A program made the position numbers and the translations under genes. From UHGV virus genome UHGV-0335080: a stretch of DNA of 34,923 nucleotides; one strand, given 5' to 3'. The notes beneath the pieces were generated by a model that saw only the letters and a program-made list of their open reading frames with translations, made no database searches and was not told the origin of the DNA. Below are positions 181-2,326 of this stretch, piece after piece. Origin of the DNA: a virus. Position 1 is the stretch's first letter. Each line of letters begins with the position of its first letter.

Positions 181-429
181 TTAGTGAACAAACCACTCGT
201 CAGCAGACTCCCAGGTATCTTTCAGAGTTTCCTGAACAAAAGTTTTAGCTGAATCTTTATCGGCGGTGCGCGTAACAGAAAGGCCATCGTTGCTGGTAGC
301 TTTTACGATCACCTCTACATCGTCATAACGTTTACTGATGCGTCGGGTTAATTCTTCCTTTAACGCATCCACAGCACCGGTTGGCATTTTAGTCATTTTT
401 TCTTTGGCTATGCAGATTTCAATACGCAT
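181..429 (-). CDS. dinI: DinI-family SOS-response protein (RecA modulator), prophage-associated paralog
   Basis: 82-aa ORF; recalled E. coli DinI shares MRIE..IAK N-terminus, GA.DAL..EL.RRI and C-terminal TWESAD.WFV motifs; two LexA boxes immediately upstream. Confidence 0.85.
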
Positions 430-490: not shown

Positions 491-515
491 TCAAGGGTGA
501 AGGAAAGTGATTTTT

Positions 516-584
516 TGGGGCATGCATGGGGCAAAAATATTTGTTGTGGGGCATTTTGGGGCATGATTGGGACACTTTGTTACA
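516..584. repeat. Array of TGGGGCA repeats between dinI-like gene and int 3' end; candidate integrase arm-type sites / att region
   Basis: TGGGGCA at 516, 527, 557, 567; 18-mer TGGGGCATGATTGGGACA (567-584) recurs as TGGGGCATCATTGGGACA at 767-784, inside the int 3' end. Confidence 0.4.
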
Positions 585-720
585 TATGAACTTTGCCGAT
601 TTTTATATGACATGGAAATACAACGCTTTGATTCTTCTAAATAAAAAACATGCTCTTGGGCGTTCTTTAGTGATTTTTAAAAATTCCGTATCACGCAGTT
701 AACATGACGGGTATTAAGGA

Positions 721-2034
721 TTAACTTACTGATTTTAATAAGCCTCTGGTGTCACTTTGGTGACTATGGGGCATCATTGGGACATAATCTGTCAGCTTCT
801 GATTCAGCATTGCGATCTGTTCTGCATTGCTGTCAGTCATCCATGCTCCGTATACATTGAATACCATCTGGGCACTTGCATGGCCCATCTGGCTGGCAAT
901 GAAGCTTGGGTTTGCTCCGGCAGATAATGACCAGCACGCATAAGTGTGTCGTGACTGGTATGCCTTTCGATGCCTGATCCCTGCACGCTTAATGGCTGTT
1001 TCCCATGAGTCACCTACAGAATCGACTTTGTAGACAAAACCTACCTGTTCGCTTTTTCTAACCACTTGAGGGTTAAACACGAAAGTACATTCATGGTTCA
1101 CTGAACGTCTATATTCACGTAGTTGCACCTTGATGTTGTACTGCTTACCCAGTCTTGTCATTTCAGCCTGATTTTTCAGGACACTGATAGCGGGCTGGAT
1201 AAGGTGCACAACCCTGTTTGTGCTTGCTTCAGTTTTCGGTAGAGTGAACTCACCAAGTTTCGTATAATTGCGCCTGATGGTAATTGTTCCTGCCTTCAGA
1301 TCGATATCTTCCCAGGCCAGGGAGACCAGTTCACCGTGACGCATTCCTGTGTACACAGCCAATGACCACAGGTTTTTCGTCTGCTGATGTCGGCAAGCAT
1401 CTATCAGGCGAATAAATTCGTCACGAGTTAGCGGATCTGGCTCTGCCCTGGCTCTTTTAAGAGGCTTAATTCCCTGGAAGGGATTTGCTTCTAAGTAACC
1501 GTGATCTGCAGCAAACTGAAACATTCCAGCGATTGTCGTCATGTAATAATTTACAGTAACGACGCTCCGTCCTTTTGCTGCTACTTTGTTTTTCGTTGAA
1601 TTCTGATACCCGGTAAGCAAATCTTTCCTGATATACAGCAATTCCTCTTTGGTTACCGATGACACCAGTCTACTGCCTCCAATTTTCGGAACCATCGTTC
1701 TTGCAACGGATTCATAGCGATTGAATGCATTTGCAGAGATTTCCATTCGTTTCAGATCCAGCCACTTTTCTTCAAGTTCCTTCACCGTAATTTCTTTTTT
1801 ACTTACCCCAAAAGTCTGAAGGTTGGGGGAGTCAGGGAACTGTGCAGCATAATCAAAGCTTCCTGTGCGGATGGCAAAACATACTGATGTCCGCAGTTCC
1901 CCGGCGATCTTCCTGTTCTTGGCAGTGTCAGGGACACCAAGATTTTCCCTGACACGTTTACCTTTAAAATTAAACCAGATGCGTAATGTGCCGCCGTGGT
2001 TTTCGACGCCTGTTGGATATTTGACTTTATCCAT
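721..2034 (-). CDS. int: Phage integrase, tyrosine site-specific recombinase
   Basis: 437-aa ORF; C-terminal catalytic region with R...HxxR...Y pattern (HSRHTYACW, VFNVYGAWM); GGAGGT RBS; adjacent excisionase; position at prophage end. Confidence 0.9.
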   Translation of the reverse strand: MDKVKYPTGVENHGGTLRIWFNFKGKRVRENLGVPDTAKNRKIAGELRTSVCFAIRTGSFDYAAQFPDSPNLQTFGVSKKEITVKELEEKWLDLKRMEISANAFNRYESVARTMVPKIGGSRLVSSVTKEELLYIRKDLLTGYQNSTKNKVAAKGRSVVTVNYYMTTIAGMFQFAADHGYLEANPFQGIKPLKRARAEPDPLTRDEFIRLIDACRHQQTKNLWSLAVYTGMRHGELVSLAWEDIDLKAGTITIRRNYTKLGEFTLPKTEASTNRVVHLIQPAISVLKNQAEMTRLGKQYNIKVQLREYRRSVNHECTFVFNPQVVRKSEQVGFVYKVDSVGDSWETAIKRAGIRHRKAYQSRHTYACWSLSAGANPSFIASQMGHASAQMVFNVYGAWMTDSNAEQIAMLNQKLTDYVPMMPHSHQSDTRGLLKSVS

Positions 2035-2089: not shown

Positions 2090-2326
2090 TCACCTGGGTT
2101 GTTTGTTTTTCATTGAGGCGACCCAGGCATCTATTGCTTTTCTGTTATACATACATTCACTGGAAGGCTTTGGATTACCGTCTGGTGATACGTGAATATA
2201 CTCTCTTCCAACCATCCAGCATTCTTTCCGGGCCCGAAGAATTGTGCCTGGTTTGAGCCCGGTAATTGCGATAAGAACGCTTTCACAAACCCATTCATTG
2301 GGAGCCAGTTGAATCACATTGCCCAT
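2090..2326 (-). CDS. xis: Excisionase-like protein
   Basis: 78-aa ORF immediately upstream of int on same strand; small basic protein resembling lambdoid prophage excisionase-like proteins; GAGGT RBS. Confidence 0.6.
   Translation of the reverse strand: MGNVIQLAPNEWVCESVLIAITGLKPGTILRARKECWMVGREYIHVSPDGNPKPSSECMYNRKAIDAWVASMKNKQPR

Follow-up and report, generated by a model that had tools for sequence, protein, structure and literature searches.

The attP of bacteriophage lambda comprises the arm-type integrase sites P1, P2 and P'1-P'3, the integration host factor (IHF) sites H1, H2 and H', and the excisionase (Xis) sites X1, X1.5 and X2. Lambda and HK022 have arm-type sites in common and differ in core specificity. 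Closer relatives of the locus described here are found in the Stx2e phage phiP27, the record of which opens with an annotated 11-bp attL, CACGCAGTTAA, and closes with an identical attR, and in the Rac prophage of Escherichia coli K-12 with its IntR/XisR pair. The public annotation of phiP27 is limited to these 11-bp attL and attR sites and includes no arm sites. The DUF72 gene yecE is an established phage insertion site (PMC8112680), and Rac XisR is known to bind an attR fragment (PMC4632033). The stretch analysed here, UHGV virus genome UHGV-0335080 (34,923 nucleotides, hereafter the window), harbours at positions 516-784 what is very probably a complete attP (P arm, core and P' arm) of a phiP27-type, yecE-inserting phage, and there are strong grounds to regard the TGGGRCA repeats within it as the arm-type sites of its integrase (Int).

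The locus is similar to the lambda attP in that it is situated just downstream of a leftward int and spans about 270 bp, with repeats in each arm that bear no relation to the core and of which the P' copies reach the 3' end of int. As in lambda, xis adjoins int and the integrase possesses a separate N-terminal arm-binding domain; IHF sites are predicted, by consensus match, between the arms and the core. The differences from lambda concern the motif (TGGGRCA, compared with C/AAGTCACTAT in lambda), the arrangement of the sites in pairs with an 11-bp register and a single orientation, the Pfam family of the arm domain (PF12167), the core and the target gene (yecE). With phiP27 the window shares the same 11-bp core, an int gene of 94.8% nucleotide identity and arm repeats at the same offsets, whereas phiP27 lacks a dinI-like gene between the late region and the P arm and has a degenerate version of the one repeat that stands apart from the pairs. 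In a manner resembling lambda and HK022, one arm-site code seems to be used by integrases with different cores and targets, and the N-terminal domain is the most conserved. The integrase of Rac belongs to the same family (49% identity in the N-terminal domain), and a TGGGGCA-N3-TGGGGGCA pair is present at +73; Rac differs, however, in its target (ttcA), in the motif spacing and flanks, which vary, and in the location of the P' pair, which lies just past the int stop codon and not inside the coding region.

The core of the attP maps to positions 692-702 (plus strand), where the window reads CACGCAGTTAA, identical to the annotated attL and attR of phiP27. A four-way alignment of the window, the intact yecE locus of E. 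coli MG1655, an E. coli attL and the attR of P-EibC revealed that exactly this 11-mer is common to all four sequences. In the same alignment the attL consists of the left flank of attB and the right flank of the window, and the attR of the left flank of the window and the right flank of attB. Positions 692-702 are thus the crossover core, and as the window contains this core in uninterrupted connection with both a P arm and a P' arm, the site is an attP. A search of 5,426 complete E. coli genomes with window positions 505-905 as the query led to the identification of 343 genomes with a match, none of which contains a contiguous copy of the query; the best matches all start at query position 188, which corresponds to window position 692. 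A sequence-only reading of this DNA had put the edge of the prophage in the interval that separates the dinI-like gene from int, and this is borne out by the position of the core and by the break of the E. coli matches at 692. Alignment with the uninterrupted host locus (MG1655 yecE) defined CACGCAGTTAA as the core, and the same core is found at the other prophage end, since attL and attR of phiP27 carry the identical 11-mer.

The strand-exchange overlap is probably CAGTTAA (696-702), because a secondary-site insertion has only those seven bases in common with attP. This insertion was seen downstream of int in a 93-kb contig (L075, IMGVR_UViG_2850796239_000011), where a related prophage resides at a site other than yecE, in a target which resembles the late-gene region of another phage. 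The junction hints at a 7-bp overlap region and at an insertion of one prophage into another.

Both flanks of the core are of phage origin. The part of the window that starts at 692 and extends to the right shows 94.8% identity with the left end of phiP27, 99.6% with PhiR49_2 and up to 99.9% with prophages adjoining yecE in many E. coli genomes. The right end of PhiR49_2 has this dinI-like gene and P arm as well, and in phage CharmingMan the tail fibre gene, dinI, the repeats, the core, int and xis are contiguous in the middle of the genome. The region had previously been described as attL or attP; of these two, the attP assignment holds, while attL does not, the DNA to the left of 692 being phage DNA. 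An attL with host DNA on its left was rejected, as the matches to positions 1-691 are the right ends of phages, with PhiR49_2 at 99.6% and many others matching through their dinI modules. The exact P-core-P' junction pattern was not found in species-representative genomes or viral contigs; a looser version of the pattern was detected in one viral contig (L095) and in none of the species-representative genomes. In the window the attP junction is followed by early/replication genes and then by late genes, with a terminase among the matched features and large open reading frames extending to ∼33.8 kb. Such an order is more readily reconciled with an assembly that is circular or circularly permuted, or with a tandem array, than with a simple host-flanked prophage; one must bear in mind that a circular or permuted phage assembly and a tandem or prophage-in-prophage array would yield an identical junction.

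Pattern search and reading of the sequence located TGGGGCA at starts 516, 527, 547, 557 and 767, and TGGGACA at 568 and 778. These are seven of the nine TGGGRCA motifs of the 34.9-kb window; all seven fall within 516-784 (269 bp) and every one of them is on the plus strand. They are arranged as three pairs in an 11-bp register (516-533, 557-574 and 767-784) and a lone site at 547-553, and the pair pattern TGGGRCA-N4-TGGGRCA starts at 516, 557 and 767 only across the whole window. The predicted arm-type sites are accordingly numbered from the core start as follows: a distal P-arm pair at 516-522 and 527-533 (both TGGGGCA, -176/-165), a proximal P-arm pair at 557-563 (TGGGGCA) and 568-574 (TGGGACA; -135/-124), and a P'-arm pair at 767-773 (TGGGGCA) and 778-784 (TGGGACA; +75/+86), the last of which lies inside the 3' coding end of int. 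The single TGGGGCA at 547-553, which is variably kept in relatives, is probably optional or auxiliary. A separate repeat search returned a 21-nt unit in three copies (513-533, 554-574 and 764-784). The four TGGGGCA copies that the sequence-only reading had seen in the left array are all present (516-522, 527-533, 547-553 and 557-563). The 18-bp repeat described there is also real, with its one-mismatch copy TGGGGCATCATTGGGACA correctly assigned to 767-784 within the C-terminal coding region of int, although the first copy, TGGGGCATGATTGGGACA, had been placed ten bases off, at 567-584 instead of 557-574, and the distance between the starts of the two copies is 210 bp and not 200 bp. A third, looser copy of the 18-bp unit, TGGGGCATGCATGGGGCA, which that reading had not singled out, occupies 516-533. 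Although the motif is no more frequent over the whole window than expected by chance (9 observed, 12.4 +/- 3.2 expected), its clustering is non-random: in 1,000,000 random placements at most four motifs came together, and the analytic estimate is ∼8e-13.

The spacing of the repeats relative to the core is conserved in related phages. In phiP27, L095 and the attR of P-EibC the P-arm motifs start at -176/-165 and -135/-124, as in the window, with some of these sequences having a further one at -145, and in CharmingMan the P-arm offsets are one base smaller than those of the window. Wherever a P' arm is present (the window, phiP27, CharmingMan and L095) its offsets are +75/+86. Stx2_95 (yecE, 21-bp duplication), the integrase of which shares 76% amino acid identity with that of the window, carries a triple at -143/-132/-121 as the only motifs of its P arm, the distal pair being absent, and a P' pair at +74/+85. 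In PA50, a 933W-like Stx phage with different genome ends (Int identity 68%), the motifs are found at -171/-160 and -140/-129 in the P arm and at +71/+82 in the P' arm, and in mEp460_ev081 (60%) one P-arm pair is accompanied by a second pair 207 bp downstream, at the 3' end of int. The remaining arm DNA of these three phages is essentially unalignable with the window. Within the P arm the proximal pair at 557-574 is the most invariant block of a five-way attP alignment. L095 and P-EibC retain the single site at 547-553, of which phiP27 (TCGGGACG) and CharmingMan (TTAGGACG) have degenerate versions, and a relic attR carried by phi80 has lost it through a 10-bp deletion. The P' pair was found at the same place in all 80 of the 80 close IMG/VR relatives; the 73 of the relatives that could be anchored represent 13 haplotypes, within which only the R position of the motifs varies (G/A) and the flanks vary more. 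A natural control of decay is offered by the PPompW prophages, which carry a relic attR now serving only as attB for other phages (PMC8112680): the core of this defunct relic is intact, whereas three of its four arm motifs have decayed by mutation.

The int gene (721-2034, minus strand) codes for a tyrosine integrase of 437 amino acids with an N-terminal arm-binding domain and a catalytic domain. Residues 7-70 match the Pfam profile PF12167 (Arm-DNA-bind_2) over its full length (E 1e-23), residues 202-395 match the catalytic domain PF00589 (E 3e-18), and the protein shares 99% amino acid identity with the integrases of many yecE prophages. The match to lambda Int is weak and confined to the catalytic region; likewise, a sequence search of the PDB returned weak matches, all of them to catalytic domains, and none to a structure of this arm-binding domain. 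Among the relatives sharing the motif, identity to the integrase of the window is highest in the N-terminal domain (77-99%), drops to as little as 49% in the core-binding region and is lowest in the C-terminal tail, which is encoded over the P' pair (27-35% in Stx2_95, PA50 and mEp460_ev081). In the window the copy at 767-784 encodes V-P-M-M-P-H of this tail; in CharmingMan the corresponding residues are APQMPQ, yet the DNA still reads TGGGRCA-N4-TGGGRCA. The reading of the repeats as Int sites is favoured because the P' motif is kept while both the Int tail and the flanking DNA diverge. The proposal of arm-type integrase sites made by the sequence-only reading is thus supported by the repeats on both sides of the core at conserved offsets and by the arm-binding domain of Int.

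The alternative named in that reading, another protein-binding array, is disfavoured. One such candidate is the excisionase or another directionality factor, which would bind the repeats in place of Int; we consider this improbable. The xis gene (2090-2326, minus strand) encodes a protein of 78 amino acids that matches the putative excisionase family PF06806 (DUF1233; E 1e-32). Characterised Xis sites, such as those of lambda, are found in the P arm only, whereas the motif of the window occurs in both arms. Among relatives with an identical motif, moreover, Xis retains only 41-47% identity, compared with 77-86% for the N-terminal domain of Int. On the other hand, xis adjoins int in every relative examined, and an electrophoretic mobility shift assay has demonstrated binding of Rac XisR to an attR fragment of 294 bp (PMC4632033) that may include the GGGGCAAAA repeats of Rac. 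A better candidate for the Xis site is a separate direct repeat beside the proximal pair, CATATGAA at 583-590 and TATATGAC at 604-611 (plus strand, 21 bp apart), because it changes along with Xis: phiP27, CharmingMan and the phi80 relic retain the CATATGAA-type repeat, and its place is taken by unrelated TTCGTCGA repeats in Stx2_95, the Xis of which is 47% identical. This assignment is suggested by the pattern of conservation.

The second alternative views 516-574 as a regulatory element bound by a transcription factor upstream of the SOS-controlled promoter of the dinI-like gene, with the copy in int being incidental, and appears very unlikely. The dinI-like gene (181-429, minus strand; Pfam DinI) is preceded by a sigma-70-like promoter on the same strand, recognised by a promoter scan, and the array does begin 22 bp upstream of its -35 hexamer (TTGACA, 489-494). 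Two LexA-box-like CTGT-N8-ACAG elements (445-460 and 473-488) overlap this promoter directly to the left of the array and are separate from the repeats. Phage mEp460 agrees with the window in dinI, its promoter and the LexA-type boxes as far as about position 498, beyond which it has an unrelated int and no repeats; many other phages, the homology of which stops at about 494-500, also have dinI and the promoter without the repeats. Conversely, no dinI adjoins the repeats of phiP27, L095, PA50 and mEp460_ev081, and the copy in int stands at a conserved distance from the core. As far as these comparisons go, the repeats travel with the int module and not with dinI. A chance cluster or a functionless remnant of a local duplication, to which only the unremarkable window-wide count of the motif lends itself, can practically be dismissed given a clustering probability of ∼1e-12 and the retention of the motif, the pairing, the 11-bp register and the distance from the core where the flanks and the Int tail have diverged beyond alignment.

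Several further elements of the attP were recognised between the arm-type sites and the core. An IHF consensus site, AATCAAAGCGTTG (WATCAANNNNTTR), is predicted in the P arm at 621-633 (minus strand); it is the sole perfect IHF consensus on both strands of the whole window and has the P-arm sites on one side and the core on the other. An IHF-like site with one mismatch, AATCAGTAAGTTA, is located in the P' arm at 722-734 (minus strand), about +31 from the core centre and between the core and the P' pair, where it overlaps a conserved ACTGATTTTAATA block. Both are predicted by their match to the consensus, and in the attP alignment they are imperfectly conserved among relatives. A highly conserved block, TGCTCTTGGGCGTTCTTTAGTGATTTTTAAAAA (651-683, plus strand), is found just to the left of the core. 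It contains one copy (667-682) of the direct repeat TTAsTGATTTTwAAwA, the other being at 726-741. The two copies, TTAGTGATTTTTAAAA and TTACTGATTTTAATAA, flank the core centre at a distance of about 30 bp each and belong to the blocks best conserved in the attP alignment; the right one overlaps the IHF-like site.

By analogy with lambda, Int would be heterobivalent, its N-terminal Arm-DNA-bind_2 domain contacting the TGGGRCA repeats and its C-terminal domains binding and cutting the core. Bends of the IHF type at the predicted sites 621-633 and 722-734 would fold the arms onto the core to give an intasome, in which strand exchange would take place within CACGCAGTTAA. The switch of the complex to excision would be brought about by Xis, for which the CATATGAA repeats beside the proximal P pair are the probable site of action, and the pairs of arm sites may be divided between integration and excision.

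A number of observations weigh against assigning the repeats to Int in this way. Xis always accompanies Int, so that a comparison of relatives leaves some ambiguity as to which of the two is the binder. The sites are without exception direct repeats on the same strand, in contrast to lambda, where the P2 site is inverted, and the geometry of the intasome may therefore differ from that of lambda. Conservation does not extend to the single site at 547-553. Inverted core-type sites flanking the core appear weak in attP, where only CCGT...ACGG is seen; the surroundings of the core in attB read CCCTCCAC...GTGGCGGG around GCAGTTAAA. The phi80 relic keeps the repeats without a cognate Int nearby, hence retention alone is no proof of current function. 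Finally, neither arm-site mapping nor a mention of the motif was found for this integrase family in the literature searchable without subscription.

The att core and the yecE target were already known (annotation of phiP27; PMC8112680), and the mechanism is the ordinary lambda type. What the present analysis adds is the definition of a full attachment site of ∼270 bp (516-784) and of a likely accessory-site code for widespread E. coli prophage integrases, a family which includes those of yecE-inserting Shiga-toxin phages and of the Rac prophage of K-12. This may be useful in delineating prophage boundaries, in designing integration vectors and in considering the effects of co-resident prophages on excision; no new mechanism is involved. 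The targets spanned by the arm code include two yecE core variants, the PA50 site, the mEp460_ev081 site and, with the Rac variant, ttcA. It is conceivable, albeit doubtful, that a single code of TGGGRCA pairs at fixed offsets is common to a whole clade of Arm-DNA-bind_2 integrases with different targets and makes cross-talk between prophages possible. If so, the Int N-terminal domains of one prophage could occupy the att arms of another in polylysogens, such as enterohaemorrhagic E. coli or K-12 with Rac, with cross-help or cross-interference in integration and excision as the outcome. Another possibility is that the distal pair, owing to its position 22 bp upstream of the dinI-like -35 hexamer, couples Int occupancy to dinI expression.

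In the case of K-12 Rac, TGGGGCAaatTGGGGGCA is found at +73 from the annotated prophage start (the attL boundary), and several GGGGCAAAA repeats are present in the attR arm; these are candidate arm sites of IntR. The Rac repeats are located at 2973-2990 of one end record (L098) and at 500-560 of the other (L099).

Phi80 was considered as a characterised homologue of the window attP and rejected, as the homologous stretch turned out to be a relic attR with a yecE fragment. This relic (JX871397, 1750-2070; also present in mEp237) comprises dinL, a gene of the DinI family, a LexA box, TGGGGCA pairs and the core CACGCAGTTAA, together with the start of yecE (∼30 codons), which is annotated as a DUF72 pseudogene, and is situated 1.2 kb from the own attP of phi80 and its unrelated int. 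It might act as an attB within a prophage, like the PPompW site (PMC8112680).

Insertion at the core also affects the target gene. Residues 1-29 of YecE are exchanged for 13 in-frame phage codons (IKISKLILNTRHV-NCVEGN...; region of window positions 692-739), which overlap the 3' end of int. RefSeq assigns an ATT start to the hybrid DUF72 gene at the attL of E. coli 3059 (1278-2048).

The dinI-like gene itself represents phage cargo that adjoins attP and lies outside the recombination site. The homology of its module to many unrelated phages stops at about 494-500, with a sharp mosaic junction at about 498-515. The promoter of this gene was the sole result of the promoter/terminator scan, and an Rfam scan of positions 1-2500 gave no match in the att region. 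Further to the left, a GC-rich hairpin (ccgcagcacg...cgtgctgcgg) follows the stop codon of the first open reading frame at 74-118. It shows a sub-threshold match to the 3' end of the Rfam family CssrB (36 bits, the gathering score being 76) and is most simply explained as a terminator. The same hairpin precedes the P arm of phiP27, which lacks dinI.

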